Part shown: positions 12,523 through 59,487 of the stretch, one piece after another | Layout: the number at the start of each line of letters is the position of its first letter | How positions within the stretch are numbered: the first letter of the stretch is position 1 | Origin: an uncultured delta proteobacterium | GTDB taxonomy: Bacteria > Desulfobacterota > Zymogenia > Zymogenales > Zymogenaceae | Assembly: GCA_963792965.1 (NCBI GenBank) | Contig: CAWBYW010000013.1 | Span: forward strand, 160,677-224,676 | Direction of reading: 5' to 3' | Length of the DNA stretch: 64,000 nt | Position numbers and translations under genes: made by a program | Notes under the pieces: generated by a model | The model's database searches: none | The model's input: the letters and a program-made list of their open reading frames with translations, nothing else | Told to the model about the DNA's origin: nothing

Positions 12523-13665
12523 TCATTTTCCTCTTTCTATGACCGCCGTATCGAACACGGTTCCATCGGGCAGGACGGCCCGGAACGTGCACGTTTTCCC
12601 GTCGACATCCATCACAAGGAAATGATGGGCCACTCTCGTGGCGTCCGTCCTCCCCATAAACAGGGTGTAGAAATTATACTTATTGATTTTGTAGAGAGGT
12701 GAACCGCCGCCGCCGGTGATGAAAAACGGAACGCCGGAATAAGTGGTCCCCCGGGCATAGTGGTGATCATGGCCGGAGATGATGGCGGTAACCCCGTAAC
12801 GTCCCATTATTCCCGTAAAGGGCTTCAGTCCCGAGTAGCCCCTGCGGAACCTCCAGTGGCTGATCACCCCCTCGTGGGAGAGTATGAAAACGTGATGGAT
12901 GTCCGGCCGTTTTGACGCATCCTTCAGCAGCCGATAGAGCCTCACGCCCTCCGTAAAGGTAAAGAACGGCCGCTTCGAGTAGATATCCAGGAAGATGAAG
13001 AGATCCCCGCATATCGTCTCGTTAAACGTGATCGAGTCTGAGGGGATGGAGACGGGCCGAATGAAAAACCGTCGAAACATCGTGAAGGCACGATCATACT
13101 CGACGTCGTGGTTTCCCGGCACTCCAAAGATCGGGATATGGTCAAAGAGCTTTTTGCCGGGATCAAATAACTGTCCCTTCCAGTCCTTGGCCTGATTTGA
13201 CCTGTCGACGAAATCACCGAGCATGACGATAAACCGGGGCCGGTACGCGTCAATCCGGGAGAAGATGAGATTCGTGACGCCGGTGTTACCGCGTGTGTCG
13301 CCGAGGAATACGGCGCGATATGGTCCCCGCTCGGGGAGCGTGAAAAACCACGATCGGTGGCCGACGATTCGATTTACCAAGACCGCGTATTCATAGCGAG
13401 TGTCGGGCGCGAGCCCCCCGATCGTCACCACGTGGCGGGTTGCCACGTCCGGCGAGGAGATCTCCCTCTCCAACCCCGTGGGATCGGAGAGCACCACCGA
13501 TCCCGCCGCGGCGTTGTCGGTCTCCCACACAACGGTCATCGTGTTGGGACCGGGCAGCTCCAGAAGAGGGCCGATGGTGATCTCTGAGCCCAAGGCGGTG
13601 GCCGCAAAAAAGAAAATCAGAACAGTCACGGCCGTCAACATGATCCATATGATTCCATTCTTCAT
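12523..13665 (-). CDS. Secreted metallophosphoesterase with N-terminal FN3/purple-acid-phosphatase-type domain (paralog A1)
   Basis: Signal peptide; GDTR, GDFV, GNHD, SHE, GHDHHY, TGGGG. Confidence 0.85.
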   Translation of the reverse strand: MKNGIIWIMLTAVTVLIFFFAATALGSEITIGPLLELPGPNTMTVVWETDNAAAGSVVLSDPTGLEREISSPDVATRHVVTIGGLAPDTRYEYAVLVNRIVGHRSWFFTLPERGPYRAVFLGDTRGNTGVTNLIFSRIDAYRPRFIVMLGDFVDRSNQAKDWKGQLFDPGKKLFDHIPIFGVPGNHDVEYDRAFTMFRRFFIRPVSIPSDSITFNETICGDLFIFLDIYSKRPFFTFTEGVRLYRLLKDASKRPDIHHVFILSHEGVISHWRFRRGYSGLKPFTGIMGRYGVTAIISGHDHHYARGTTYSGVPFFITGGGGSPLYKINKYNFYTLFMGRTDATRVAHHFLVMDVDGKTCTFRAVLPDGTVFDTAVIERGK

Positions 13666-13857
13666 GGGGGATGACTCCCTATCGATCTCAGCAACTATTG
13701 GTGAGGAACATGCGTATTATCCGAGGTTCCCCATACCAACCCTGACATGGGATCGTTCAATCCAATATCCTCGAAAGAGGTCCTCGCGATGCTGGAGTGA
13801 GGAGTCCGGCCAGTCTTGTCCGAGCTCCTTCTTTTAGGAGGTTACCGCACGGCATGA

Positions 13858-14977
13858 CTATTGCGGCTTGTGTCTCACCGACTTCCGATTGCTCACCCGC
13901 ACGGATGAAAAGAACCAAATGCCGAGAAGGCATGATACTAATCCACCGGAGCCCATAATCGGCATCTCCCATTTTTCTTCATGCTCAAAGAAGGCAAAGG
14001 CCTGCGTGAGCATCGTCTTTTTCATTACGTAGAACGGGCGCTTCTGACTTTTACCTATATAGATCCGTTCATTCACGTTTCTTGTGACCGGATCAACCTG
14101 GATGAGCATGGCGTGATATGAGCCTTCCTTCTCGTTTTTCGCCTTGTTCGCGAACTTATCGGTCCCTCCCCCTGAGATAAGGAAGACCGTGTTTCTGACT
14201 TTGGCGCGAAAATAGGAATGGAAATCCCCCGAGATGACGTAATCGACGTTGTTGTTCTCGACCAGCGATAGGAATTCCTTTTCCCCCAGCATCTTCCTGC
14301 TCCTGATGGCAGGTGAGATGGTATGTGGCGGTATATGCGTGAAGACAAACGTCATGAGGGTGCCTTTCTGCCTATGCGAAAGGGCCTCGGCAAGGTACGC
14401 GACGTGGCTGTCGGTTTCTATATCGTTGAGTATGACGAAGAGACACCCGTGGTAGTAAAACGAAAAATCGGCCGGGCCGTAAGTCCTTTCAAAGTCCTTC
14501 AGGGTAAAGGAATACCACCTGTTCCGGGCTATATTCGGCTCGGTGACGATGTCGTGATTGCCGCAGACGAGAAATACCGGCTCATGAATTCCCCAGGTGG
14601 GGAAATCCATCATGAATTCCTTATGAGACTCTGTTTTAGCGGGTCTCACATTGTCGCCTAATAGAACGCCGAAATTTGGAGAATCACCTTTAATGTCGTC
14701 GCGATAGATGGCCGGGAAGAAATCGTTTTGCTGCATATCTCCCACAATGAAGAAGGAGAAGGGAGCAGAATCGGAATCGGTTTTCTTGAGTAAATCGATA
14801 TTGTCCTGCTTATTTCCGAGGAACGCCGGCAACTTCACCCGCTCGCGAGACTCGCCGTATATAATCGACGCCGCGCCATAGCTCAAAGAGAGCAATGAGA
14901 TCAACAGGAGGAGTGAAAATGATTATTGACTTAATGTCGAAAATTTTCTTAGACATGCTCCGTTTTTCACTATTCAT
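13858..14977 (-). CDS. Membrane-anchored metallophosphoesterase (paralog B1); apparent frameshift at ~14915 in the N-terminus
   Basis: GDMQ, GDNV, GNHD, HIPP, GDFH; alignment with 17247-18386 restores the N-terminus from the ATG at 14977. Confidence 0.8.
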
Positions 14978-15080
14978 CTCTATCATTGAAATTCTTTTGC
15001 GGGAAGATAAGTCACCCGACTGTTAGCAAAATAGACTACTACCCTTTCGGGAACATTACAAAAGGATTAGATAGCTATAA
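13896..15080. repeat. Copy 1 of a ~1.2-kb direct repeat (gene B plus upstream region)
   Basis: Visibly near-identical to 17312-18496, including the non-coding CTTTCGGGAACATTACAA...GATTAGATA. Confidence 0.85.
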
Positions 15081-15189
15081 TCTTTATCTATTAATAATCT
15101 TTCGCCGATGAGGCGGCCGCCTTTGTCGCCTTTATCGCGCCTGATAGTGTCCGAACCTCGACACCGCTCGACCACAGAAGTAGAAAATT

Positions 15190-16323
15190 CTATCTCTTGC
15201 TCTTTCGTATCGTGGTCCTGTCGATTACTTTTCCGTTTTCCTCAATGGCGGTAAAGGTCACCACGTCTCCGCGAACGTCCATGAGGAGCATGTGGTAGGT
15301 CTTGAGTGCGAACACTTTCCTGCCGGTAAGGATCGCAAAGGGATTGTAATTTTCGATGTCATAGAGTGGGGCACCCCCGCCGCCCGTGATGATGAACGGG
15401 ACCCCCGAGTAGGTGTTCCCCCGGACATAGTGGTGATCGTGACTGGTGATGAGTGCGGTCACCCCGCGTCGTCCCATGACGCCGGTAAAAAGCTTCAGAC
15501 CGAAAAATCCCCTGCGCGAGTTTGAGTAATCCAAGACCCCTTCGTGGGAAAGGACGAAGATGTGCCGTACGCGCGGGTCCCGCGAGGCCTCCTTGAGCGT
15601 GTGGAGAAGCCACATTCCTTCGGTGAAGGCAAAAAACGGCCTGACGGTGTAGACATCAAGGACGACAAATAAGTCGCCTCCGAGAGAAAACGTATAATAG
15701 AGCCTTCCCTCAGGTGTGCTCTTCGGAGGGGGGAAATAGTGTGCGTAGAGATCGGCCCGTCCTTTCTCGTCGAGATCATGATTGCCGAGCACGGCCACCA
15801 ACGGGATATGATCGAAGACATCTCTTCCCACGTCGAACAGGTACTTTTTCCATACGGCCCCGCCCCACGTGCCGTGGATCATGTCGCCGAGATGTACGAT
15901 GAGATAGGGGTGGTTTTTTTCAATCAGCAAGAGAAGCTTCCTAAAGGTCTTGGGGTTGTCCCTCGAATCACCCATGAGTGCTATGCGATATGAATCATCC
16001 CCGTCGAAGGTGACAAAAGAGGCCTCATGGATAACGCTCCCCCCTCCCACTACTTGATACTTATAACTCGTTCCTGGCTTGAGTCCCGATAGAGTGACCA
16101 GATGGTAGACTCCCTTTTCCAGGGAGGGCACCTCCGTCTTTTTCCCCGATGGGTCGGTAAGGATGACGGAGGAATTTACGGGAATGTCCGTCTCCCACAT
16201 GACGGCCATCGTGTCGCTGCCGGGGCGTTCCAGCACCGGACCGATGGTTATCTCCGCACCGGATGCCAGAGCGGCGGCATATAGATTGAGTACCAGTATC
16301 ACTGCGATAATACTTCTTTTCAT
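15190..16323 (-). CDS. Secreted metallophosphoesterase with FN3-type domain (paralog A2)
   Basis: Signal peptide; GDSR, GDMI, GNHD, SHDHHY; colinear with A1. Confidence 0.85.
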   Translation of the reverse strand: MKRSIIAVILVLNLYAAALASGAEITIGPVLERPGSDTMAVMWETDIPVNSSVILTDPSGKKTEVPSLEKGVYHLVTLSGLKPGTSYKYQVVGGGSVIHEASFVTFDGDDSYRIALMGDSRDNPKTFRKLLLLIEKNHPYLIVHLGDMIHGTWGGAVWKKYLFDVGRDVFDHIPLVAVLGNHDLDEKGRADLYAHYFPPPKSTPEGRLYYTFSLGGDLFVVLDVYTVRPFFAFTEGMWLLHTLKEASRDPRVRHIFVLSHEGVLDYSNSRRGFFGLKLFTGVMGRRGVTALITSHDHHYVRGNTYSGVPFIITGGGGAPLYDIENYNPFAILTGRKVFALKTYHMLLMDVRGDVVTFTAIEENGKVIDRTTIRKSKR

Positions 16324-16479
16324 GCTTTTCGTGCCCTGTGTCGTCAGATTCATTTCAATCTACTTAATCTTACGACTGTTTTTTAGTTTTCGCCTCTATG
16401 GCATCGCGGGTTCAATGTAGGCCTTGCTTGCATAAGAAAGGCCGGATTACTCCGGCCTTTCCGTGTGAAGTCGGGATAT

Positions 16480-17079
16480 TTACCTGTCTCGGTCTCCCCA
16501 CCATTCGTGGTCGCCTTCCTTTTCGTGGTTACCCTCGCGGGCGCCTTCGCATTCATGACCCCACTTGCCTCTCTCCCCGCAGATTCCGAATCCTCCACCA
16601 AATCCGGGGCCGAACCCGGCACCGAAACCGGGGCCACCCATAGGACCGAAGCCCGGCTCCATAAAGGCATACGGATCGGCCTTGAGCTGCTCGTCAGTCA
16701 ATAGCGCACGAGCACTATTGCGAAACTCCCGGAAGAGAGGGATGTTCTTATCGGCAAGGGCCTTGATTTCGTCCTGGGCCTTATCGATTGCGTTGATGTC
16801 CGGTTTTTCGGCGAGATACAGCTTTTTCAGCTCGAACTCCTTTTTCACGATTTCGTCGGTGTTTTTTTCTTTGTCGGTGAATAGCTTCTCCTGGAGATCA
16901 ATCAGCTTGGTCTTCTGTTCCGTGGTCAGTTTGAGCTCGTCCGTGTATCCAACGTATCCCTTATCCTTATCCCGACCAAAACACCACGGCTCTTTACCCC
17001 GCCGATCTTTATCACAGCCCGCGCCAATGATCAGTAGCAGCGTAACCAAGGCAAGAACCATGTAATTATACTTTTTCAT
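16480..17079 (-). CDS. Spy/CpxP/ZraP-like periplasmic lipoprotein with a Gly-Pro-Phe and His/Glu-rich tail
   Basis: Lipobox-like IGAGC; LTTEQ and LTDEQ motifs. Confidence 0.75.
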   Translation of the reverse strand: MKKYNYMVLALVTLLLIIGAGCDKDRRGKEPWCFGRDKDKGYVGYTDELKLTTEQKTKLIDLQEKLFTDKEKNTDEIVKKEFELKKLYLAEKPDINAIDKAQDEIKALADKNIPLFREFRNSARALLTDEQLKADPYAFMEPGFGPMGGPGFGAGFGPGFGGGFGICGERGKWGHECEGAREGNHEKEGDHEWWGDRDR

Positions 17080-17246
17080 CCGTTCTGCTCCTTTCTTGCT
17101 GTGGTGCTTTTTGTTATCTCAACACGTCGAAACGCGCTATGTGCACCAGAGCTTTTTGTCGCATTTGTCTCGATATCCTTATCCTAATCTCCCTCAGCCA
17201 GTCCCCCACCCATCGATATGTTAGCCTCGATTATGAGTGTTCCTCC

Positions 17247-18386
17247 TTATCTCTTATATTGTAGCGGCGTAAAGTCGTCACGGGTCGTTCTTTCCTGCTT
17301 TCTGCTGTGTGCCCGCACGGATGAAAAGAACCAGATACCCAGAAGACATGATGCCAGTCCGCCGGAGCCCATGATCGGCGTTTCCCATTTTTCATCGTGC
17401 TCAAAGAAGGCAAAGACCTGCGTGAGCATTATCTTTTTCATCGTGTAGACCGGGCGCTTCTCACTCTTGCCTATATAGATCCGTTCATTGACATTTCTTG
17501 TGACCGGGTCGACCTGGATGAGCATGGCCTGATATGAGCCTTCCTTCTCGTTTTTCGGCTTGTTCGCAAACTTATCTGTCCCTCCCCCTGAGATGAGGAA
17601 GATCGTGTTCCTGACCTTGGCGCGAAAATAGGAATGGAAATCCCCCTCGATGACGTAATCGACGTTGTTATTCTCGACCAGTGACAAGAATTCTTTTTCT
17701 CCCAGCATCTCCTTACTGCTAATGGCGGGCGAGATCGTGTGTGCCGGTATATGCGTGAAGACAAACGTCATGAGGGTGTCTTTCTTCCTGTGCGAGAGGG
17801 CGTCGGCAAGGTAGGCAACGTGGCTGTCGGTGTCCACATCGTTGAGGATGACGAAGAGACATCCATGGTAGTAAAAGGAAAAATCAGCCGGGCCGTAGGT
17901 CTTTTCAAAGTCTTTCAGGGTAAAGGAGAACCACCTGTTGTTGGCGATATCCGTCTTGGTGACGATTTCGTGATTGCCGCACACGAGAAACACCGGCACG
18001 TTGACGCCCCATGTGGGGAAATCCATCATGAATTGTGCGTGATCCTCCGCTTTTGGATTCTTAACGAAGTCTCCAAGGATGAGGCCGAAATTGGGGGAGT
18101 CGCTCTTGATGTCGTTTTTGTAGATACCGGGGAAGAAGTCGCCTAATTGCGTATCCCCGACGACAAAGAAGGAAAAGGGAGAATCGCCCGTATTGCTCTT
18201 CCCGAGAAGGTCGATGTTCTCCGTCTTGTTTCCCAGGAACGCCGGCAGCTTCACCTGTTCGTGAGACTCGCCGTATATAATCGACGCCGCGCCGTAGCTC
18301 AAAGAAAGCAATGAGATCAACAGGAGAAAGAAGATGATTGCTGATTTTATACCAAAGACTTTCCTGAGCATGTTCCGCTCTTTCAT
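17247..18386 (-). CDS. Membrane-anchored metallophosphoesterase (paralog B2)
   Basis: GDTQ, GDFV, GNHE, HIPA, GDFH; N- and C-terminal hydrophobic segments. Confidence 0.85.
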   Translation of the reverse strand: MKERNMLRKVFGIKSAIIFFLLLISLLSLSYGAASIIYGESHEQVKLPAFLGNKTENIDLLGKSNTGDSPFSFFVVGDTQLGDFFPGIYKNDIKSDSPNFGLILGDFVKNPKAEDHAQFMMDFPTWGVNVPVFLVCGNHEIVTKTDIANNRWFSFTLKDFEKTYGPADFSFYYHGCLFVILNDVDTDSHVAYLADALSHRKKDTLMTFVFTHIPAHTISPAISSKEMLGEKEFLSLVENNNVDYVIEGDFHSYFRAKVRNTIFLISGGGTDKFANKPKNEKEGSYQAMLIQVDPVTRNVNERIYIGKSEKRPVYTMKKIMLTQVFAFFEHDEKWETPIMGSGGLASCLLGIWFFSSVRAHSRKQERTTRDDFTPLQYKR

Positions 18387-25192: not shown

Positions 25193-25957
25193 CTATTTCT
25201 TTGTCCACCGGTATCCACTCAACGCCCACAGCACCACGTTGGTCCCATAGAAGACCCATACGAGGCGGAACATGACCTCGGAGAGGGTACCCATCCCGAG
25301 GTTGAAGATCTCGCCGGTGATCTCGGTGGCAAACCAGCAACTCGCCGCTATGGCGACCATCCAGGCGTTTGCCCTCGGGTAGAGTCTATAGCGCACCGTC
25401 TCCCACGCAAACCACATCGTGGTGCAAAAGAAGGCCGTATAGATCGGGCCGATGACCGCATGGCCGACGCGGACGATATCGGGCCAGAGGATGACCACGA
25501 TAACGGCGGCGACCCCGAATATGAGAACGGGGAGCCAGAGGTCGGTGATCTTGAACTTCTTCAGATACGGTACGCCGTGTGCGAGGCGGATAATCAGGAA
25601 GATATGCGCACATATCGAGAGCACCCCTCCGACCATAAAGACCCAGGATCCAACCGACAGTGCAGGGCTTACCACCACTATGCTCATCAGCACATCGGTC
25701 GGCACCATGCAGAGGAACGCGGCAAAGAGCAGCCACCAGTCCTTATTGCCGAGACGGTTGTTGCCGATCATCAAGACGAGCATAAGTCCCAGCAGCGTAA
25801 TGACGGGCTTGGCGACCGCCGGGTAGAGGCTCGCGGTGCCGTAAAAATAGTTCATCCAGTCCACGCCGAAGATTGATCCGGCCAAGAGAAGAATGGCCCC
25901 GACGAGTCCGAGGACCCAGGCGAGCTTTGCGGCTGCCAAGACCCGACTTTCTTTCAT
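25193..25957 (-). CDS. Multi-pass membrane protein, YhhN/lysoplasmalogenase-like
   Basis: About 8 TM segments; VAKP, PTDVL, CAHIF and WFATE resemble YhhN motifs. Confidence 0.55.
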   Translation of the reverse strand: MKESRVLAAAKLAWVLGLVGAILLLAGSIFGVDWMNYFYGTASLYPAVAKPVITLLGLMLVLMIGNNRLGNKDWWLLFAAFLCMVPTDVLMSIVVVSPALSVGSWVFMVGGVLSICAHIFLIIRLAHGVPYLKKFKITDLWLPVLIFGVAAVIVVILWPDIVRVGHAVIGPIYTAFFCTTMWFAWETVRYRLYPRANAWMVAIAASCWFATEITGEIFNLGMGTLSEVMFRLVWVFYGTNVVLWALSGYRWTKK

Positions 25958-26093: not shown

Positions 26094-27107
26094 TTATTTT
26101 TTCTTAGACATTTCGGCCACTTTTTTTGCCACCGCGTCGTTGAACCTCTTGCCCGTCCACCCGACGCTGAAGAGGCACCCACAGTATACGGAGAGGAAGA
26201 CCACCAGGAACTTGCATACGACCGCGACCGGGAACGATACCTTTTCTATACCGACCGCCTTGGTAACGACCCCGAACAGTATGCCCAGCGCCGCCCCCAT
26301 CAAGAGCATCAGGATAAAATAGAGAAATCCGTTGATGCCCCTGGCCTTGCCCGTATAGGTGAACCTGCCGAGATACATATCCGACAGCGTCGAGGCCGAA
26401 AGCCCGAGGAAGGTGAAATTACAGACGAACATGAAGGTGACCGCGAAATCCAGGGCCATGGCGGCTGTCGGCACAAGAGAATTCGGATCCTTCGCGACCT
26501 CGTGGGAAAAACCACGGTTGGCAAAGGCCAGGTTGATGATCAGCTGAAAAATGAGCGTGGGCAAGATATAGTGGGCCCAGATGTATTTGGACTTCGAGGC
26601 GACCGGTTTTCCGGAGAAAGGTCCGGCGGCAGCCAGCCCCGAGATGTCGTCATAGATGTAGCGTCTCACGATGAGGGCAAAAGGAATCACAAACAGGAAC
26701 GATAAAAGGACCGTGACAACCGGCGAGGGGGTCCAGCCGGCCCCGAAGATGATCGCAGCCATGATAGCGGTGAAGACGACCGCCCCGACGATCCCGAGGG
26801 GGGCCGTCCTGCATACCGGCACGTCGATGGGGGCCTTGGCGGGGGTCTTTTCGTTCTTCTTTACCTCGGCCTTTTCGCTGATCAGCTCTACCCGGGAGGC
26901 AAAGAGCGTCGCGCCCGGCTGAAAGATGATAAACGCGAAATAGACGGTGGCGAGAAAGCCCAGCACCGTGTACGGGGTGTACTCCTTGCCCATGAGGTTA
27001 AAGACCAGCAGCGCGCCCAGGACGATAAGTACGGCAATGACAATGAAACTGATAATGACCTGTACAGCGAATAATTTCTTGATTCCCATTTTCTCGTGAC
27101 CGCTCAT
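26094..27107 (-). CDS. Hypothetical multi-pass membrane protein
   Basis: 337-aa ORF with ~8 hydrophobic segments; AAGGAGG RBS. Confidence 0.75.
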   Translation of the reverse strand: MSGHEKMGIKKLFAVQVIISFIVIAVLIVLGALLVFNLMGKEYTPYTVLGFLATVYFAFIIFQPGATLFASRVELISEKAEVKKNEKTPAKAPIDVPVCRTAPLGIVGAVVFTAIMAAIIFGAGWTPSPVVTVLLSFLFVIPFALIVRRYIYDDISGLAAAGPFSGKPVASKSKYIWAHYILPTLIFQLIINLAFANRGFSHEVAKDPNSLVPTAAMALDFAVTFMFVCNFTFLGLSASTLSDMYLGRFTYTGKARGINGFLYFILMLLMGAALGILFGVVTKAVGIEKVSFPVAVVCKFLVVFLSVYCGCLFSVGWTGKRFNDAVAKKVAEMSKKK

Positions 27108-27486: not shown

Positions 27487-28715
27487 CTATTTCGCAAATC
27501 TCCTCTGGGACGTCGGCACCAGAAGGATCTTGCCGACGACCTGCATGATGCCGTCGGAGCTTTCCTTGCACGTCTCCTTGACCATCTTGAGCACGGCGCC
27601 CGCCGTCGTCTCCTGCCAGAACCAGTCAACGAGCTGCAGCGTTGGGAGCGATTCGTTGCCAGGCTGGGCCGTGAGGGCCTCGAAGTAGTAGGCCTTGAGG
27701 TCGTCCACGGCAAGCTTCAGGACATCCGGTAGCGAAAGGTCAGTCTCTCGGGTTTTTTGGGGGACGTACCGACGGCGAAGGGGAAGATAAAATCCACCAG
27801 CGCCTCGAGGTCGAGCCCGCTGTTGCCGACGGTGGTTCGCCCGCGCTTCTTTACCGCCAGATCGTACCACGATCTCATCGCGGCAAACTCCTCGGAAAAC
27901 GCCGCCCTGAGCCTTTCGGACTCGGAGAGCTCGCCCGGTCGAAGCGATATCGATATCGGACAAAAGAGGGAGGCGTCATGGGGCGTGGCGGCCGGCACGT
28001 CCTCTCCGAAATCCTCGATGATCGGCCCCTGGGGCGCCTCCAGGAGCCGCAGGGCCGAAAGGAGCACCCGTCTCTGAAAACCGACCTCGTTCGGGACGCC
28101 GAGGGGACGCCCGAGCTCGAACGGCACCCAGAGCGCCCGTGGTGGCCTTATTTGTTCGGTGTGCTCCCGGATCAGGCTGATCTGCGTCGTCGGGACCCCC
28201 TCCTCTTCAAAGTAGTGTGCCAGACCGCCCACGGCGATCGTGCAGAGCGGTCAAACGGGGATTAAGAGGAGCGCGTTGACGTTATCTTTTTTCAGGATGC
28301 CGGCAAGCGTCCGCGCCGCGCCTTCCATCTGAAGGGGGCTGTTCGCACCCATAAACGAGTAGTGGTAGGCCGCGACGCTCCCGATGATCCGGTCTTTTGC
28401 GAGCTCCTTCAGGCGGTCAATCGGGAAGACAACGTTCCAGTCCTGTTGGAATCCGGTGCGGTCGAAATTCGTGGAGATGTGGGTCATGGTGAGTTGGTCG
28501 GCGGCCACGTCGCCGGGAATAATGCGGTACTGGTCGCCGGGCATGATGGTGAAGGGACGGTCGCCCCTCACTACGAGCCCCGCTGTCGAGATGATCGAAA
28601 CTCGACGCTCGGAAAGCGGCGGCCCCGCCGCCCAGGGGGTGGTCGTGTACTGCGGACATTGGAGGTTCTTGAGAAAAGACCGCTCCGGCTCGTGTAGCTG
28701 GTCGAGGCGTGCCAT
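27487..28715 (-). CDS. GrdB/PrdB-like selenoprotein (UxxC) with C-terminal extension; in-frame TGA at 28251-28253; apparent frameshift at ~27750-27760
   Basis: STAG, DWNVVFPIDRL, HYSFMG, LLIPV-TGA-PLCTIAVGGLAHYFEEEGVPT in one frame; joins LKLAVDDLKAYYFEA. Confidence 0.85.
28223..28252 (-). promoter_or_regulatory. Candidate bacterial SECIS hairpin
   Basis: GACCGCTC-TG-CACG-ATCGC-CGTG-GGCGGTC starting at the UGA. Confidence 0.5.
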
Positions 28716-28979
28716 GGATCATCCCCGTTTTTCGTGTTTCTGTCAAACAGACGGCGCATCGGACGATGCGCGAACGTTACCTTACATACGAGCACATAAC
28801 GGGCCGATTGTCAAGAGTTATGAGCGGGGGGAGCCTAAAGGGGATGTTTAAGGGATCGGACACATAATAGCCGAGAGCGTGACATCACTGACTATATGCA
28901 CATATAGATAGGCGAAAGGGCAGACAACAAGTACCCGTAGATTGCTAAAGATTTACGCAAAGAAAGGGAGGAACATACA

Positions 28980-29123
28980 ATGAACGCAAAAATATTAGTG
29001 ATGGCTCCGATGCTTCTTCTGTCGGCCGCGGTCGTCGGACCGACTCTTGCTCTTGCCCTCGATAAGCCGGGAACGGTTGTCGACCCCGCGGACTTTGTCA
29101 GCGATACACTGATCATTAGATAA
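28980..29123 (+). CDS. Secreted small peptide P1 (47 aa): MNAKILVMAPMLLLSAAVVGPTLALA-LDKPGTVVDPADFVSDTLIIR
   Basis: GGGAGG RBS, signal peptide, one copy of the core found in 29899-30315; absent from the ORF track. Confidence 0.8.
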   Translation: MNAKILVMAPMLLLSAAVVGPTLALALDKPGTVVDPADFVSDTLIIR

Positions 29124-29142
29124 ACGCTGACACGTCCTCATC

Positions 29143-29172
29143 GGCCCTCTCTTTTTGAGAGGGCCTTTTTTT
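29143..29172 (+). terminator. Intrinsic terminator of P1
   Basis: GGCCCTCTC-TTTTT-GAGAGGGCC-T7. Confidence 0.85.
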
Positions 29173-29318
29173 ATTCTTGGAAGCAGTGTGAATGCGGGTT
29201 CTCTTGCCCCGGATGATGATAAGGGGTGTGGAGGCGACATGTCTGCCGACCCCATGGCTCGATATCGGGCGGGAGGCGATGGGTACGGCGTCGCGGCGGC
29301 CGCAAATATTTTGAAAAG

Positions 29319-29350
29319 GATGAATCTCCGGCCGGGCTCGGGAATCTAAA
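29319..29350 (+). promoter_or_regulatory. Putative ECF-sigma-type promoter of P2
   Basis: GATGAA-N19-ATCTAAA, same motif and spacing as 29823-29854. Confidence 0.6.
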
Positions 29351-29400
29351 TACTACTGAAGCCGTAGGGTTTTAGAATTGAGAGAGGGGAGGGATGGACG

Positions 29401-29550
29401 ATGAATGCAACACTACTTGCGCTGGCTTTTCTCTTTGTGCTGTCGATTGTCGTAATTAAGCCGGTCTTCGCCTATGTGACCGAAAGGCCGACGGTAGTCG
29501 TCGAAACGATAGATTTCGGCGGCGATACACACACAATCCTGGGGAGATAA
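29401..29550 (+). CDS. Secreted small peptide P2 (49 aa): MNATLLALAFLFVLSIVVIKPVFA-YVTERPTVVVETIDFGGDTHTILGR
   Basis: GGGAGG RBS, signal peptide, diverged core; absent from the ORF track. Confidence 0.75.
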   Translation: MNATLLALAFLFVLSIVVIKPVFAYVTERPTVVVETIDFGGDTHTILGR

Positions 29551-29569
29551 CCATTGACACGGACCTGAG

Positions 29570-29599
29570 GGCCCTTCTCGTAAGAGAGGGCCTTTTTTT
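29570..29599 (+). terminator. Intrinsic terminator of P2
   Basis: GGCCCTTCTC-GTAA-GAGAGGGCC-T7. Confidence 0.85.
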
Positions 29600-29822
29600 A
29601 TCGTGCGGGATGTGTCGGGGAACGCGGGTCATTTTGCCTGCTGCTGCGTCATGTCTCGAAGAGGTGGCATACACACCGCCGGTTCCTTACCGGACCTCCG
29701 CAGACAGAGATCGGTTCGCGCGGCCGCGATATATCTCAGCTTTACCGGCAAACGGTCGCGACGAATCGGCTTCTTTTTCAACCCTCCCTGTTTCCCAACG
29801 CAGACTGCCTTTTTTTCGTCTC

Positions 29823-29854
29823 GATGAACCGTCCGGGATGCTGCTCCATCTAAA
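29823..29854 (+). promoter_or_regulatory. Putative ECF-sigma-type promoter of P3
   Basis: GATGAA-N19-ATCTAAA ending 44 nt before the ATG. Confidence 0.6.
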
Positions 29855-29898
29855 GTATTAAATTGGTAGTAATTAACCAACAAGAGGAGGGATGTAAA

Positions 29899-30315
29899 AT
29901 GAACACGAAACATTTAGTGGCAGTTTGGATGTTTTTGCTGGCTGTCGTGACAATAACCCCAGCCGTAGCGTATATGAGCGAAGAGCCCGGGACGATCGTG
30001 AACCCGAAGGATTTTGTCGTTGATACCGTTAAGCTGGCACTATTAGGCAATGAGCCGGGGACTATGATTGACCGCAGCGAGTTTGTCGGCGATACACTTA
30101 GGGTTTCTCTTTTAAGCAATGAGCCGGGAACGGTCGTAAATCCGAAGGATTTCGTCGCAGACACGATTAAGCTGGCGCTCTTAGCCAATGAGCCGGGGAC
30201 TCTGATTGACCGGTCCGAGTTTGTCGGTGATACACTTAGAGTTTCCCTTTTGAGCAATGAGCCCGGAACGGTCATCGACCGCAGCGAGTTTGTCGGTGAC
30301 AGCATTGACATATAG
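29899..30315 (+). CDS. Secreted repeat protein P3 (138 aa): signal peptide plus five 23-aa repeats
   Basis: GAGGAGG RBS; PAVA cleavage site; repeats (N/E)EPGTh(V/I)(N/D)xx(D/E)FVxDT. Confidence 0.85.
   Translation: MNTKHLVAVWMFLLAVVTITPAVAYMSEEPGTIVNPKDFVVDTVKLALLGNEPGTMIDRSEFVGDTLRVSLLSNEPGTVVNPKDFVADTIKLALLANEPGTLIDRSEFVGDTLRVSLLSNEPGTVIDRSEFVGDSIDI
29983..30312 (+). repeat. 69-nt tandem coding repeat, five units (last truncated), A-B-A-B-B order
   Basis: GAGCC(C/G)GG starts at 29983, 30052, 30121, 30190 and 30259. Confidence 0.92.
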
Positions 30316-30407
30316 GCTGGGCAAGGTGGGATAGAGGAGCAATTGGGGGTGGAGTTACAGGTTTTTTCCTTGACCAGTTAAAGAGGTTCATATGTTGACG
30401 TTCTGAT

Positions 30408-30440
30408 GAGAGCCCTCTTGATGAAAGAGGGCTCTTTCTT
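30408..30440 (+). terminator. Intrinsic terminator of P3
   Basis: GAGAGCCCTCTT-GATGA-AAGAGGGCTCTT-TCTT. Confidence 0.8.
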
Positions 30441-30776
30441 ATCTATATTCGGGGATAGCGAAAACGCATAGATAATTGCCTTATCTTATGCGGGTCCTGA
30501 GGCGAAGTAATACGGATTCAAGGATCTGCCTTCCTCGGTGACCCCTAACTTCCTCGTATAGTTGAGTATTCTTCATTACTCTCATCCCTCAATTATCTCG
30601 CCGTTGCCAGAGGGGCCGAGAATAATTTCTACCTGCATGGTCAGGGAAGTTGGATGGACGTGAAAAACGCTGGTGGGGTCCTATTTACCGAAATCGAGCT
30701 TTTGATGACGCTCTTCCTCTTCAAATCTTCGCGATCACGATGGTGATGGGTCACCGGAAAAATACGCGTGGCCTCG

Positions 30777-32411
30777 TTATTTAGTCCGTTTGGGGTAGTG
30801 TTTTTCCCGGCATTCCGGGCAGATGGCGTGGGAAAAATCGGCCCCGGTATGCTCTTTCAGATAGCTCTCCAGGTGATCCCAGTAGCCCTGATCGTCTCTG
30901 ATTTTCTTGCAGAAGGCGCAGATCGGGATCAGGCCCGACAACGTCTTGATTTCTCCTGCGGCTCTTTGCAGCTCGGCTATCAGCCGCTCCTTCTCTTCTT
31001 CTATCCGCTTGCGCTCGGTGATATCCACGACGATCGAGCGAATCTCCACTTCTCCGCCTATGGGATCCGGAATCCGGTTGATCGACAGGCTGACCCAGAC
31101 CGTCGAACCGTCCGGGCGCCGCATCTGCAGATGGCGGTCGACAACCGGCCTCCCGGCGTTGAAGTCCCCCATAACCCCCTGGGCAGCCGATTTTGAGTCG
31201 GGCGTATCCAGACAGAGGTCAAAGAGCGACCGGCCCAGCAGCTCGGCGCGCTCGATGCCGACCAATTCAACGGCGCGTCGGTTGCATATCTGGATGATGC
31301 CGTCCGTATCGGTGGAAAAATAGGCGGTCGGGGCGTTCTCGTACAGGTCGCGGAATTTCTCCTCGGACTTCACGAGGACCGCCCGGTCCGATTTGAGCTG
31401 GGTAACGTCGGTGATGGTCAGGACGCGTCCCCGGTGCTGTTGACCCCAGCCGGCAAGGGGGAACGCGCCCATCTTAAAGATCCGTTCACCCAAGGTGATT
31501 TCCGCAAGATCTCCAACCACGATGCCCGGCACACTGGTGAGCTCCGACCAGGCTATGGCGGCCTCTTCCACGCTCATGCCAAGGGCCTCAAACGCGGGTG
31601 AGCCGAAGATCCGGACCGCCGCCGGGTTCATGTCTACGATTCGAGTGTGATCGTCCAACACGACGAACCCTTCGCCCATCTGCTCGACGACAAGGTCCCG
31701 CGCAAAGAGCCTGAGGTCGAAAATTCGGTACCTGAATATCGTAAGGGAAAAGACAAGAGCCGTCCCGACAAAGCCGAAATGGGTCAGATCCAGGCCGGGC
31801 AGGGGAGAGAGGCCGGAGACATACAGGAGGTTTCCGATCAGCGGCAGCACCGCCCCGCCGACCATGAGGCCGATGCCGAAACGGTACCGCTTTGTGTAGT
31901 GCCTGAAGGCGTTCAGGAGGAGTATCGTCCCGGCCACGAACATCGCGTAAGTGTAGGCTATGGCCACCCAGAACCAGGGCCCATGTTTATATATCGGAAG
32001 GCTCAGGCCCGAGACGGTATTCGGGGTTATGCTTGTCCATATCAGGCCGTGCAAGTCGTTAGTGAAGGCCATGACGATGGTGATCGCGGGAAGGATGCCC
32101 AGCAGGGCCAGTCGTTTCCTGGTCAGCCATCCTTTATTTCCGGTGTAATGGAGAGCGAAAACGAGCCAGAAAAAGCCGACGGTGGCGATTCCGAGATATT
32201 CGCATTTTGCCCAGAAGATCTTGCCGGCCATTTCGAGGGCGGCGCCCTCAAGCGCCCTGGTCAGGCTCCATTCCCCCACCGCCAGCATCAGAAGCGTGAA
32301 AGGAGTCCCGCCCGGATTTCCGCGCCTTGACAAGGCGAAAAGCGCAAAGACCAGCGCGATACACGCGTTGGCGACGAACAGCAGGGCCAGCGGTGTAATA
32401 TGGTAGGTCAT
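30777..32411 (-). CDS. Membrane sensor: N-terminal 7TM (HisKA_7TM-like) + two PAS + C-terminal CxxC...HxxCxxC domain; no kinase domain
   Basis: FTNDLHGLIW, GPWFW; PAS segments; PICAFCKKIRDDQGYW...SHAICPEC. Confidence 0.82.
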   Translation of the reverse strand: MTYHITPLALLFVANACIALVFALFALSRRGNPGGTPFTLLMLAVGEWSLTRALEGAALEMAGKIFWAKCEYLGIATVGFFWLVFALHYTGNKGWLTRKRLALLGILPAITIVMAFTNDLHGLIWTSITPNTVSGLSLPIYKHGPWFWVAIAYTYAMFVAGTILLLNAFRHYTKRYRFGIGLMVGGAVLPLIGNLLYVSGLSPLPGLDLTHFGFVGTALVFSLTIFRYRIFDLRLFARDLVVEQMGEGFVVLDDHTRIVDMNPAAVRIFGSPAFEALGMSVEEAAIAWSELTSVPGIVVGDLAEITLGERIFKMGAFPLAGWGQQHRGRVLTITDVTQLKSDRAVLVKSEEKFRDLYENAPTAYFSTDTDGIIQICNRRAVELVGIERAELLGRSLFDLCLDTPDSKSAAQGVMGDFNAGRPVVDRHLQMRRPDGSTVWVSLSINRIPDPIGGEVEIRSIVVDITERKRIEEEKERLIAELQRAAGEIKTLSGLIPICAFCKKIRDDQGYWDHLESYLKEHTGADFSHAICPECREKHYPKRTK

Positions 32412-32736
32412 CTCTCTCTTCCTCTCTCCTCCGTTCTTGTCGGACACTCCGTCGGCACCCGGTCGCCGGGCCGGTCATGCGTATGGTCCGCGTCACATCG
32501 TGCGGCTGAACTCGACCGTCATACTACCAGCATTCATGCAAAAAGAAAATCAAATAGTGCAAATCATCTCATTACAAACGGTATGGACAACGGTCGTGGA
32601 CATCACGGTCGCGGTTCAACACGCGCATGGACCAGAGAGGCGGAAGGAAGAGAGGGCGAGGGGAGATGGGCGAGCCCGGAGACGCGGTGGGCGCCGACAT
32701 TGAGCGGAGAATCGATTCTTAGATGGTAAAATATCG

Positions 32737-47634: not shown

Positions 47635-48510
47635 ATGGTCAAGCATAAAGGTATCCTGATCGCGGTGATTCTCGTGTGTCTCGTCATTGTAGTGGCAGGT
47701 ATTGTGGTGTTGTCTACCTTTCTCACGACGGGAGTCTCGCCATTCGCGAAGTCCGTCGCGATCATCGAGGTCAAGGGTGTGATCGCCGGATCGGATGACG
47801 TTATCAAGAAGATCAAGGAATATAGGGATGACGACAATGTCGCCGCGGTCGTGCTCAGGATCAACTCGCCCGGCGGCAGTGCCGCGTCCTCACAGGAAAT
47901 CTATGAGGAGCTCAAGAAGCTTGCAAAGAAGAAGACGCTCGTCGTTTCCATGGGAGACGTAGCGGCGTCGGGGGGCTTCTACATCGCCGTGGCCGCAAAC
48001 TACATCTATGCCAACCCCGCCACGACTACCGGGAGCATCGGCGTCATCGCCGAAACACTGAACGTCGAGCAGGCGCTGAATACCCTCGGGATCAAGGGGG
48101 TTGTCATCAAGAGCGGAAAGTTCAAGGACACGCTTTCCCCCCTGCGTCCAATGACCGAGGAGGAGCGGGCGTTCCTGCAGGAATATATTGATAGTATCTT
48201 CAGGCAGTTCGTCAAGGCCGTGGCCGACGGACGAAAGCTCCCCGAGAGCGAAGTCCTCAAGATCGCCGACGGCAGGGTGTTGACCGGGGAGCAGGCCTTG
48301 AAATTAAAGCTGATCGACGGGATCGGCAACATGGAGGACGCCATCGATATGGCGGCAAAAAAGGCCGGCATCAAGGGGAAGCCCAACGTCATCTATCCCG
48401 AGAAGGAGCGGCTGTCGCTTCTCTCGATCCTGCTCAATGAGATGAAGAGCAGTGTCTCGGAGCGTGTCCTCGGCCAAACGTTCAGTGCCGAGTACCGGCT
48501 GCTTCCTTAA
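47635..48510 (+). CDS. sppA: Signal peptide peptidase SppA (S49)
   Basis: RINSPGG, AASGGFY, TGSIGV, SGKFKD. Confidence 0.93.
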   Translation: MVKHKGILIAVILVCLVIVVAGIVVLSTFLTTGVSPFAKSVAIIEVKGVIAGSDDVIKKIKEYRDDDNVAAVVLRINSPGGSAASSQEIYEELKKLAKKKTLVVSMGDVAASGGFYIAVAANYIYANPATTTGSIGVIAETLNVEQALNTLGIKGVVIKSGKFKDTLSPLRPMTEEERAFLQEYIDSIFRQFVKAVADGRKLPESEVLKIADGRVLTGEQALKLKLIDGIGNMEDAIDMAAKKAGIKGKPNVIYPEKERLSLLSILLNEMKSSVSERVLGQTFSAEYRLLP

Positions 48511-48517
48511 GAAGACC

Positions 48518-49384
48518 GTGAACGCCTTCTTTTCACAAAAGTCCCGGTACGCAATAGGAGGCGTCGCGGCGCTCCTCTTCCTTTGCGCCGTGACGGTCTT
48601 CGCGGCCCAGTACGTCGTCATCAAGATACTGCACAGGCCGGCATCCGAATTAGTGGAAGCAGTAAGGGCGATCCTTACCCCCGGGGGGACCGTGATCGCC
48701 GACACGAGTAACAATACGCTCATCGTCATGGACGAGCCGGCCACCCTCGTGAAGGTTCGGGAACTGGCGGCGGCGATGGATAGTCCGGGACGTCAGGTGA
48801 GACTTACCGTCACCTTCTTTGAGGCGGTGAGCGCCGCAGACGTCGACCTCTTAGTCCGCTGGCGTTACGCGGATGGAGGGTTCTTTATCGGGAACTATGC
48901 GGGTGGAGAAGTCGAGGGCGGCCTCTCCGTAGGGGCGCAGCCCCGGGCGATGTGGAAGAGGAGTACCTCTACCACGACCCAGGATATCCTGGTGATGAGC
49001 GGACAGTCGGGGACCCTCATCACGGGCCAGAGCGTTCCAATCACGACCGAGGTGCTGACCTTCCTTCGCGACGGCGGTATCGTCACGGGGGGCGTGGTCT
49101 TCCGGGAGGTGGCGTGTGGCTTTCAGTTCACCCCGACGATACTTGAGAATGCCGTGAGGATCGATATCGTGCCCATCATGTCCTATTTTACCGACACGAA
49201 GAGCGGATCGATCGCCTTCTATCAGGCCAGGACCTCAGTCACGGTCCCGGCAAATCAGACCGTCGTCATTACCGAGAGCACCGGTGACAAGGGGAAGTTC
49301 GTCGCCGATATATTTTCGGGCTTTTCGTCATCCGGCGCGAAGGGAAAGTTTTATCTGTCGATTACACCGAGTATCGAAGACTAA
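48518..49384 (+). CDS. Short secretin-like protein (NolW/Secretin_N domain plus beta-rich C-terminus)
   Basis: Signal peptide; ILHRPASEL...DTSNNTLIV.D...AMDSPGRQV; start uncertain. Confidence 0.65.
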   Translation: MNAFFSQKSRYAIGGVAALLFLCAVTVFAAQYVVIKILHRPASELVEAVRAILTPGGTVIADTSNNTLIVMDEPATLVKVRELAAAMDSPGRQVRLTVTFFEAVSAADVDLLVRWRYADGGFFIGNYAGGEVEGGLSVGAQPRAMWKRSTSTTTQDILVMSGQSGTLITGQSVPITTEVLTFLRDGGIVTGGVVFREVACGFQFTPTILENAVRIDIVPIMSYFTDTKSGSIAFYQARTSVTVPANQTVVITESTGDKGKFVADIFSGFSSSGAKGKFYLSITPSIED

Positions 49385-54440: not shown

Positions 54441-56000
54441 ATGCACTCCGTCGATATCCATCAAGAAAAGGTCCTTATACTTGACTTCGGGTCCCAGTAT
54501 ACCCAGCTCATCGCCCGGCGTATCCGGGAACAGCACGTCTATTGCGAGATTCACCATTGTAATATCTCCGTCGAGAAAATCAGGGAGCTTTCCCCGAGCG
54601 CACTGGTCCTTTCCGGCAGTCCTTCCAGCGTCTATGATAAGGGCGCCCCTCACATCTCTCGGGAGGTGCTCGATCTTGGTGTCCCCGTGCTCGGGATCTG
54701 CTATGGGATGCAGATCATCACCTACCTCCTCGGGGGCGAGGTGGCGTCCTCTAAGACGCGGGAGTACGGCAGGGCCGTCGTCAGGCCCGGGACGTTCGAG
54801 ACGCTCTTTTCTGGCTTCGAGGGGGACGGCAAGGTCGCGGTCTGGATGAGCCACGGCGACAGCATCAAGAAGGTCCCCCCGGGCTTCGAGATCACGGCAA
54901 AGAGCGACAATAACCTGATCGCCGCCATCGAGAACAGAAAAAAGAGAATATTCGGCGTTCAGTTTCACCCCGAGGTGGTGCATACGCCGCGGGGAACGGA
55001 GATTCTGCGCAATTTCCTGTTTGATATTGCGGGGCTTTCCGGGCTTTGGACGATGCGCTCCTTCATCGAGACCGAGATCGCGCGAATCACGGAGGTCGTG
55101 GGTGGTGACCGCGTCATCTGCGCCCTGTCGGGGGGCGTGGATTCTTCGGTGGTGGCGGCCCTCCTGGATCGGGCCGTCGGCGATCGGCTGACCTGTATAT
55201 TCGTCGACAACGGGCTGTTGCGCAAGGGAGAGGCCGGGCGTGTCAAGAAGGTCTTCCAGGGTCACTTTGGCATGGATTTCCACATGGTCTCGGCCCAGGA
55301 TGAGTTCCTGGGGCGACTTTCGAGCGTCACCGATCCCGAGAAGAAACGGAAGATCATCGGCAACCTCTTCATCGAGATCTTTGAGAAAGAAGCCCTCGCC
55401 ATCCCCGGCGTAAAATATCTTGCCCAGGGAACCCTCTATCCCGACGTCATCGAGAGCGTCTCGTTCAAGGGGCCGTCGGCCACCATCAAGAGTCACCACA
55501 ACGTCGGCGGGCTTCCCGACGTGATGAACTTGAAGCTGATAGAGCCGCTCAAGGAGCTCTTCAAGGACGAGGTGCGGGTGTTGGGCCGAGAGCTGGGGCT
55601 CCCCGAGGAAGTCATCGGTCGCCATCCCTTCCCCGGCCCGGGGCTCGCCGTCCGTATCCTTGGCGAGGTGACCAAAGGGCACTGCGATATGCTCCGGGAG
55701 GCCGACGTGATCGTCGAGGAAGAAATCAAATCGGCCGGGCTCTACGATGAGATCTGGCAGGCCTTCGCGGTGCTGCTTGGGGTCAGGACCGTGGGGGTAA
55801 TGGGGGACGAGCGGACCTATGACAACGCCGTGGCGCTCAGGATCGTCACAAGCCTGGACGGGATGACCGCCGACTGGGTGCGGCTCCCCTATGACGTCCT
55901 GGGCCGCATCGCCTCACGGATCATCAATGAGGTCAAGGGGGTCAACCGGGTCGTCTACGACGTCTCCACCAAGCCCCCGAGCACCATCGAATGGGAATAA
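54441..56000 (+). CDS. guaA: GMP synthase (glutamine-hydrolysing)
   Basis: [41 protein letters not shown]. Confidence 0.97.
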
Positions 56001-56002
56001 CC

Positions 56003-59000: not shown

Positions 59001-59487
59001 CATTGGCGGGGTCGTCACCAACTCCCGGGAAATCATCACAAAAAAAGGAAACCGGATGGCCTTCGTCACCATCGAGGATACCAAGGGGCTCTTGGAGGTG
59101 GTGGTCTTCGCGGATGTTTTCGAGGCGTCCCGCCAACACCTTGGGGCAGATACGGCGGTGCTCGTGGAGGGCACCCTCGATAAGGGCGAGGAGACCAGCA
59201 AGGTCATCGCGAAAAGTATCTCTCCGCTCAAGAAGGGGGCCGGAAACGGAGGCGGAGGCGTCTATATCGAGCTTTTCGACCGGGACATCCCCGAAGAGCG
59301 GATCGCCGGTCTCAGACGACTCATCCAGGAGCATCGGGGAAAAAGCAGGGTCTTCTTGCGTGTCGGCAACCGTGAAGAGGGGTATGTGACGATCTCGCTT
59401 TCCGAGGAGATGGGGGTAGATCCGACCAACGGCTTTATCGCCGCCGTCCGGGATCTTTTCGCGGGCGGCTCGGTCACCGTCGTGTGA
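56003..59487 (+). CDS. dnaE: DNA polymerase III alpha subunit; apparent 1-nt frameshift at ~57624-57635
   Basis: PHP HLHLHTQYSLLDG, GRGS, PDIDID; EVVTQFDM bridges the two ORFs; KFDFLGL, YGFNKSH. Confidence 0.95.

Follow-up and report, generated by a model that had tools for sequence, protein, structure and literature searches.

A narrow, lineage-restricted family of Sec-type acidic mini-proteins built from a 23-residue module in the Zymogenaceae

The 64,000-nucleotide stretch of DNA analysed here (the window) belongs to the genome of an uncultured sediment and soil bacterium of the family Zymogenaceae. At 28980-30440 it carries three genes on the + strand, P1, P2 and P3, which encode one short acidic module behind Sec-type signal peptides, once in each of P1 and P2 and as a chain of five units in P3. 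This organisation had been proposed in an earlier reading of the DNA letters (hereafter the sequence-only reading), and it was confirmed: the three open reading frames (ORFs) are present where they had been placed, each with a GGAGG-type ribosome-binding site (RBS) 6-9 nt upstream, a signal peptide recognised by its features, and a hairpin followed by a T-run (Table 1). Comparison of their sequences indicates that P1, P2 and P3 are real and mutually related genes. They define a new and narrow family of exported, acidic mini-proteins in which a module of 23 residues is the building block; a fourth member, P4, lies on another contig of the same genome, and multi-unit orthologues occur in a sister genus.

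Table 1 Genes, repeat units, promoter-like elements and terminators at 28980-30440 of the window
Feature	Position	Strand	Description
P1	28980-29123	+	single-unit gene, 47 aa; 26-aa signal peptide, 21-aa acidic mature peptide, C-terminal Arg
P1 terminator	29143-29165	+	9-pair hairpin, then T-run
Promoter-like element 5' of P2	29321-29350	+	TGAATC, 17 nt, ATCTAAA
P2	29401-29550	+	single-unit gene, 49 aa; 24-aa signal peptide, 25-aa acidic mature peptide, C-terminal Arg
P2 terminator	29573-29590	+	hairpin, then T-run
Promoter-like element 5' of P3	29825-29854	+	TGAACC, 17 nt, ATCTAAA
P3	29899-30315	+	five-unit gene, 138 aa; 24-aa signal peptide, 114-aa mature protein
P3 unit 1	29980-30048	+	23 aa
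P3 unit 2	30049-30117	+	23 aa
P3 unit 3	30118-30186	+	23 aa
P3 unit 4	30187-30255	+	23 aa
P3 unit 5	30256-30312	+	19 aa
P3 terminator	30408-30436	+	12-pair hairpin, then T-run

The unit is strictly 23 residues long, and not 21-25 residues as had been read from the window alone. On P3, Tandem Repeats Finder reports a period of 69 (4.2 copies) together with a period of 138 (2.1 copies, 84% matches). Along with the listing of the units, the first period bears out the five copies seen by the sequence-only reading; the two periods together mean that the units alternate between two types. Across 39 units from 12 sequences, the consensus is D-E-P-G-T-[IV]-[VI]-[DN]-[PI]-K-D-F-x-x-[DN]-[ST]-[FL]-[KE]-x-A-[LM]-[LM]-S, in which Pro3 is invariant (39/39), Gly4 and Phe12 are each kept in 38/39 units and Ala20 in 35/39. 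The period is exactly 23 in 39/39 units; the extraction cut fixed 23-residue windows, and an independent check found the motif starts exactly 23 residues apart within each protein. The best-conserved stretch is the junction from one unit to the next (LLS-DEPGT). In the same set of units, neither a variable spacer nor a dibasic or other obvious cleavage site is found between them.

The two unit types, one with F-V-G-[DN] and the other with F-x-V-D, are recognisable in both genera, and hence the 46-residue super-repeat predates their split. In addition, a distinct, more hydrophobic cap unit is found at the C-terminus in G005, G007, G009b, L054, P0005 and P0007, as well as in a fragment from G002 (L028). 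By eye, the P2 core resembles this cap unit of the multi-unit relatives (compared with P0007). Units are similar within one protein, with only about 40-55% identity between orthologues. When the cap unit is counted where present, members contain 1, 2, 3, 4, 5 or 7 units. This copy number differs between paralogues and between species, and it changes by recombination.

The pattern of substitutions points to selection acting on the encoded protein. Between P3 and the orthologue G009a, 37, 38 and 81 differences fall at codon positions 1, 2 and 3, respectively, and summed unit pairs within genes behave in the same way (for example 13, 7 and 40 differences). This excess at third codon positions identifies the + frame as the coding frame. 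An antisense ORF (29850-30311, - strand, 153 aa) is also open across the P3 repeats, and its counterparts are open in the orthologues; it was rejected as the gene on the strength of the same codon-position counts. The close orthologues of G005 and G007 show proportions of non-synonymous (pN) and synonymous (pS) differences of 0.023 and 0.162, and more distant orthologue pairs give pN 0.19-0.34 and pS 0.62-0.74. Within genes, units 1 and 2 of G009a differ at 0/23 residues and 10/69 bases, all synonymous, units 4 and 6 of G005 at 0 residues and 4 bases, and units 2 and 4 of P3 at 1 residue and 8 bases. Eight like-unit pairs pooled contain 52 synonymous and 19 non-synonymous changes (pN 0.044, pS 0.417); this pN is biased downward because the pairs were hand-picked for likeness, a bias of which the codon-position counts over all pairs are free. 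The single-unit paralogue pairs go in the same direction, more weakly (pN 0.38-0.41, pS 0.60-0.74). Purifying selection on the core had been set beforehand as a test of the family, and both pN below pS and the codon-position counts are in agreement with it. Overall, these comparisons indicate that the whole unit is under strong purifying selection.

The proteins P1, P2 and P3 all begin with MN(A/T)x. For P3, an alternative TTG start at 29863 would give 150 residues instead of the 138 obtained from the ATG at 29899; the ATG was retained because an MN(A/T)K start is kept in every relative. P1 and P2 are about 40% identical and have a common stop context, 3' untranslated region (UTR) and terminator sequence. 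In other assemblies, a P1 variant (P0013) has 1 residue changed and a P2 variant (P0020) has 2, both outside the core, and the two frames are open. Four DNA runs, labelled as soil and freshwater sediment, yielded contigs of 151-165 bases only, all identical to the window and hence uninformative on variation. It had been expected that standard annotation would show a single hypothetical gene at this locus. This proved wrong, since P1, P2 and P4 are already called proteins in a public protein collection, with NCBI among their sources. P3 was not found in this collection under the three sequence forms tried, and neither were three of its orthologues under the forms tried.

Signal peptides were judged by a count of features on P1-P4 and three orthologues. 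The N-region is short and usually basic (K or R), the best 12 residues of the hydrophobic core have a Kyte-Doolittle mean of 2.4-3.3, and the cleavage region shows Pro at -4 or -6, Ala, Val or Ser at -3 and Ala at -1. These proteins contain no Cys, hence no lipobox Cys, and no twin-Arg motif. By this count they have the features of substrates of Sec and signal peptidase I, with the exception of the P2 N-region, which lacks a basic residue. We infer that export takes the products into the periplasm of a cell with two membranes; a secretin gene lies in the window (48452-49381). The family products are acidic, with pI values of 4.0-4.8 (4.1, 4.75 and 4.2 for mature P1, P2 and P3, the latter with a net charge of -11), and contain no Cys, no Trp and almost no His. 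The single-unit peptides P1, P2 and P4 end in Arg exactly at the would-be start of a next unit, and the N-terminal extension that precedes their core varies from 3 to 10 residues.

Searches of Pfam, NCBIfam, PADLOC and the PDB sequences gave no family match for P1-P3, so that the absence of a known family from the sequence-only reading was upheld. The ESM Atlas gave no usable match for P3. In PHROGs, only weak matches to families of unknown function were obtained (best E 2.9e-6), which were treated as repeat-driven. As for leucine-rich repeats (LRRs), no LRR family is detected by Pfam in P1-P3 at E up to 10, an LRR protein (P0011) gives only a weak periodic match (E 2.4e-5), and inspection by eye found no counterpart of the conserved LRR Asn at the matching position of the unit. 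At the RNA level, nothing near the gathering score was obtained with Rfam over 28000-31000.

The family extends beyond the three genes of the window. The view that P1-P3 form a family was supported with an independent profile, and its limitation to three members was not, as P4 lies on another contig (G000:C9:194293-194457, - strand, 54 aa; locus L029:8294-8458). P4 was found through one match in the genome to a relaxed form of the upstream element described below. Its start, MNTKHLV, is that of P3, and a single unit-like core stands between its signal peptide and the terminal Arg. It is preceded by the family 5' UTR with a perfectly conserved cis element upstream and followed, about 100 nt downstream, by the family terminator stem. 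The genes around P4 encode TetR regulators, an HpaB-like enzyme and an acyl-CoA synthetase-like protein, with no obvious partner among them. With P3 as the query against its own 3.36-Mb assembly, only P1 (E 5.5e-6) and P2 (E 4.2e-4) were found. The independent profile, made from sequences of other genomes only and run against 72,260 six-frame segments of the own genome, placed P3 (1.3e-46), P1 (8.8e-11), P2 (7.6e-10) and P4 (1.3e-3) as the best four segments; the next one after P4 has an E of 0.022.

Among 61 related genomes, the own one counted, strong matches were found in the own genome and in 4/4 genomes of a sister genus of the Zymogenaceae (g3). Three other genera of the same family (g2, g4 and g5) gave no convincing match with either query. 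Five weak genome matches with E > 1e-3 were inspected (L008, L034, L035, L038 and L040), and none contains the unit motif. In all four g3 genomes, multi-unit orthologues with up to 7 units share the gene neighbourhood of P3. Outside the own genome, single-unit genes were encountered solely as near-identical metagenome variants, and none was detected in g3. On a larger scale, a pattern scan of the genomes of 185,579 species recovered 5 loci in 4 genomes, which are metagenome-assembled genomes (MAGs) of Candidatus Zymogenaceae or of uncultured delta proteobacteria, and the JGI metagenomes added two further short contigs. HMMER over 1.84 billion representatives gave 15 matches at E <= 1e-3. By eye, six of them are members (P0004-P0008 and P0013) and P0001 is doubtful; the other eight were judged to be unrelated repeat or unclassified proteins, such as the LRR protein P0011, with the sequences of four of the eight inspected (all except P0010, P0014, P0015 and one more). 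A word-indexed protein search returned P0001 as the one weak match of P3 (E 3.8e-5) and, with a single-unit profile, the window's own three clusters only. So far, the family thus appears to be lineage-restricted, seen only in the Zymogenaceae of the Desulfobacterota, a phylum in which the class Zymogenia is described in 10.1101/2021.03.22.436540.

Two relatives deviate from the common form. L036 (G009:C7:198620-198724 region) is a divergent 84-aa member with a family-like signal peptide and one D-E-P-G-V-V-V-D start, after which an unrelated Asn/Ser-rich tail follows; it is without the family cis element. The P3 orthologue of G007 is broken into two reading frames (L025, G007:C7, 6042-6675), and the 337-aa membrane gene beside it has an in-frame TAG (G007:C7:730424-731429). 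The split and the TAG could result from joint decay or from assembly indel errors.

Each family gene is an autonomous promoter-to-terminator unit, with the reservation that the upstream element is not recognisable 5' of P1. This element, TGAAYC, 17 nt, ATCTAWA, was found by aligning the upstream regions of the family, including those of the orthologues, and we take its layout to be that of a promoter of the extracytoplasmic function (ECF) type. In its strict form, it has 2 matches in the whole 3.36-Mb genome, 5' of P2 and 5' of P3. In its relaxed form, it has 10 genome matches, which is about the chance expectation, and 3/10 precede family genes. The possibility of an ECF-sigma regulon was rejected on these relaxed matches, none of which stands before the 5 smaller sigma-factor genes checked (6 were found). 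A longer element, which extends into the 5' UTR, was defined from the upstream sequences of g3 and P4. All of its 6 occurrences in the five genomes precede family genes (P4 in the own genome and five g3 genes), as compared to 1 match for the reversed control, and it is not matched by P1, P2 or P3. Since the longer element is found only before family genes, it travels with the gene and defines no wider regulon. On the 3' side, the terminator hairpins of P1-P3 are G+C-rich, and the region contains 7 terminator-like sites versus 2.5 +/- 1.8 in shuffles. The stem of the P3 terminator, GCCCTCTC...GAGAGGGC, recurs 3' of the orthologues and 3' of P4.

P3 and its g3 orthologues are flanked on one side by two multi-pass membrane proteins (25193-25957 and 26094-27107 in the window, both on the - strand), for which no Pfam family was found, and on the other side by a pirin gene and a thiolase cluster. 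As compared to g3, the own genome has extra DNA between the membrane gene and P3, consisting of a GrdB-like selenoprotein gene, P1 and P2, and a 7TM-PAS sensor gene is inserted between P3 and pirin. The distribution of the membrane protein 26094-27107 (337 aa) is nearly that of P3: it is present in the own genome and in 3/4 g3 genomes and was not found in g2, g4 and g5. In g3, its gene is transcribed divergently from P3. This protein is a possible candidate for a P3 partner. In the ESM Atlas, the neighbour P0002 matches only unnamed membrane-protein clusters below 0.9.

This comparison bears on whether P1 and P2 are functional at all. They could be decaying relics that arose by local duplication and were reduced to a single unit, P3 being the only functional gene. 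Their position between the 26094-27107 orthologue and P3, in DNA that is inserted as compared to the sister genus, would fit such an origin, as would the lack of the promoter-like element before P1 and of single-unit genes in g3. However, at about 40% identity both have retained start codon, RBS, signal peptide, core, terminal Arg and terminator, with pN at 0.38 versus pS at 0.60, and their variants in other assemblies keep the frames open. In addition, a third single-unit gene, P4, is found on another contig behind a perfectly conserved cis element. We consider the decay of P1 and P2 improbable.

Two neighbours of the P genes have features of their own. The GrdB-family selenoprotein gene (27717-28715, - strand) is split into two ORFs by translation table 11; with TGA read as Sec, it encodes one 332-residue protein with U155 in P-V-U-P-L-C, the N-terminal part of which is covered by Pfam GRDB. 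The sensor gene (30777-32447, - strand) is convergent with P3 and encodes a HisKA_7TM region, PAS domains and a Cys-rich C-terminal tail; Pfam finds no kinase or output domain in it, and the gene is absent at the matching position in the sister genus.

As to function, we tentatively favour, with somewhat less than even confidence, an exported acidic module that works by unit-to-unit (homotypic) association. This reading is favoured because of the rigid period, the conservation of the junctions, the cap unit, and units that are alike within a protein but different between lineages. Indeed, units that are alike within a protein and differ between orthologues are expected if they must fit one another. 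The lack of a variable spacer or obvious cleavage site, and the two unit types shared by both genera, likewise speak for a stacking module over loose peptides. Each gene provides a promoter and 5' UTR element (not before P1), a strong RBS, a signal peptide for Sec and signal peptidase I, 1 to 7 acidic units and a terminator, and the 23-residue unit would be the working module. The multi-unit chain would form a stack or scaffold closed by the distinct cap unit at its C-terminus, and the single-unit peptides would assemble together with the chain, prime its assembly or cap it. Folding or assembly may need cations, because many Asp, Asn and Glu positions are conserved (4-5 per unit). By analogy, the layout would follow the logic of short and long chaplins, and of amyloid signalling motifs in which one unit templates many; membership in neither group is implied.

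Several observations weigh against association between units. AlphaFold2 gave no confident fold, either for P3 with 5 sequences (mean pLDDT 32.7) or for its mature part with 11 sequences (mean pLDDT 39.9). The low-confidence models show short helices over K-D-F...A-L-L with E-P-G-T loops between them, and no strands. For the consensus unit, a scan of the hydrophobic moment found modest helical amphipathicity (maximum 0.43), which is non-diagnostic. Furthermore, the proteins are strongly acidic (net charge -10 to -19), which opposes self-association unless cations are present. Neither assembly nor outer-membrane secretion machinery is adjacent, and the genome, at 88.85% completeness, yielded neither CsgG nor a curlin repeat. 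Because single-unit genes were found only in the own genome and its near-identical variants, a joint action of single-unit with multi-unit proteins would not be a general property of the family. Finally, the drift of the DNA between units of identical protein sequence is also compatible with the release of identical peptides from a polyprotein.

With such a polyprotein, P3 would be exported by Sec and cut by a periplasmic or extracellular protease into 23-residue peptides, P1, P2 and P4 would deliver one peptide each upon removal of the signal peptide, and the free peptides would act as signals or ligands on a receptor encoded elsewhere. The 47-54-aa Sec precursors match Phr-type propeptides in size and layout, and tandemly duplicated pheromones in one propeptide are documented for Rap-Phr systems of Bacillota in PMC11343458. 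The terminal Arg of P1, P2 and P4, exactly where a next unit would start, is in line with this view, but the chain shows no conserved cleavage motif and no variable spacer between its units, the N-terminal extensions of the single-unit peptides vary in length, and the cap unit would have no role. Identity in protein with divergence at synonymous sites is likewise kept by the units of eukaryotic multi-copy peptide precursors, and the similarity of units inside one genome, with divergence from one genome to the next, resembles specificity groups. However, none of the loci examined has a receptor, processing protease or exporter next to it, and the sister genus g3 yielded no single-unit gene. In addition, with two membranes, a Sec product would halt in the periplasm. 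Overall, release of peptides from a polyprotein is the main rival reading, although it seems to us unlikely. More specifically, the P3 polyprotein together with P1, P2 and P4 could supply 21-28-residue acidic signals, diffusible or periplasmic, under a private cis element, with copies kept identical within a genome and lineages diverging into specificity groups. Such a pheromone-like system outside Bacillota, with no linked receptor, is distinctly doubtful.

The absence of a confident fold for the isolated chain can also be viewed differently, since it is as expected of ligand-dependent folding. The family members would then be acidic, soluble proteins of the periplasm that have divalent cations, an envelope component, a client protein or the like as ligands in place of one another. 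Capacity would be set by copy number, and the single-unit genes would be low-capacity paralogues. The low pI, the conserved Asp, Asn or Glu positions of each unit, the absence of Cys and Trp and the near-absence of His suit a binder of this kind, as does the vicinity of P3 to uncharacterised membrane proteins, of which 26094-27107 is nearly as narrowly distributed as P3 itself. On the other hand, no known cation-binding motif or family was matched, a 21-aa peptide alone would be a poor binder, and selection on all residues of the unit, even the hydrophobic ones, exceeds what simple charge buffering would require. We therefore regard binding to a non-self partner as quite unlikely, and retain the association of units with one another as the tentative reading.

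The genes adjacent to P1-P3 include no modifying enzyme, receptor or dedicated transporter. For modifying enzymes and transporters, this agrees with the sequence-only reading and holds for the whole window, as a Pfam scan of 58 ORFs of the window detected neither. These results bear on a last explanation, in which the proteins are multi-core precursors of ribosomally synthesised and post-translationally modified peptides (RiPPs) whose modifying enzyme is encoded elsewhere. The repeated cores, rich in Thr, Asp, Glu and Lys, resemble those of multi-core ester- or amide-crosslinked peptides. Nevertheless, the proteins begin with a Sec signal peptide and not with a leader, Cys is absent, and neither the 58 ORFs scanned nor the surroundings of P4 revealed an ATP-grasp, radical SAM or cyclodehydratase enzyme, a peptidase-ABC exporter or anything similar. 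This explanation, which the sequence-only reading had offered along with a signalling peptide, a protein-interaction inhibitor and an amyloid building block, is the least likely of all and highly improbable.

By sequence, the proteins fall in no described family, and it is for their layout that analogues exist, among exported short-repeat proteins with single-module paralogues. The chaplins of Streptomyces are likewise small Sec-exported proteins in which a module is present once in short and more than once in long paralogues of one genome. The short ChpD-H have one domain and the long ChpA-C have two; according to PMC3079736, short and long forms co-assemble. The resemblance is limited to this layout, with one unit in P1, P2 and P4 and five in P3. 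Pfam finds no chaplin family match in P1-P3 at E up to 10. The chaplin domain has about 40 residues, whereas the unit described here has 23 and is acidic and moderately hydrophobic, with no Cys pair and no sortase signal. Moreover, the host is a two-membrane anaerobe and not a former of aerial hyphae.

The curli subunits CsgA and CsgB, exported by Sec in a two-membrane host, resemble P3 in having about five short, imperfect tandem repeats, each of about 20 residues, behind a signal peptide. However, the Curlin repeat (PF07012) was detected neither in P1-P3 at E up to 10 nor genome-wide at E up to 0.01, and CsgG (PF03783) was not found in the own genome at its 88.85% completeness, control genomes being positive. 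P1-P3 are rich in Asp and Glu, whereas curli are rich in Gln, Asn and Gly and are not known to have single-repeat paralogues. Amyloid signalling motifs, known from HET-s/NWD2 of fungi and from NLR-associated proteins of filamentous bacteria, have about 21-25 residues, and a single copy can template a repeated partner. Unlike the present units, which stand alone behind signal peptides with no NLR or cell-death neighbours in the window, these motifs are cytoplasmic and attached to NLR or cell-death domains encoded in adjacent genes. Lastly, the Phr propeptides of RRNPPA systems are small Sec-exported precursors that can hold more than one copy of the active stretch, as described in PMC11343458. 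Those systems are found in Bacillota, with an adjacent receptor gene and mature peptides of 5-6 residues, in contrast to 23-residue units in a MAG of the Desulfobacterota, and no TPR or Rap-like domain was found among the neighbours of P1-P3, P4, G009a and the G009:C7 member.

Further features of the window lie away from the P genes. The gene for DNA polymerase III alpha (55991-59484, + strand) appears divided at 57658 between two ORFs of different frame, of which one encodes the PHP and NTPase parts and the other the finger, HhH and OB parts; the split is due to a frameshift or to an indel of the assembly. At 12526-18386 (- strand), four paralogues of the calcineurin-like or purple-acid-phosphatase type lie on one strand, with an unassigned ORF (16483-17079) among them.

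If the units self-associate, the family would provide a new and very small building block of the envelope or matrix in an uncultured class of the Desulfobacterota, and the natural series of 1, 2, 3, 5 and 7 units would be well suited to biophysics. If the units are released instead, it would represent a bacterial Sec-dependent polyprotein source of peptides in a two-membrane organism; to our knowledge, no such source is known as described. Practical value is limited at present, the family being confined to one family of MAGs. More generally, exported peptides of 21-28 residues under clear selection indicate that real genes exist at the lower size limit of ORF calling.

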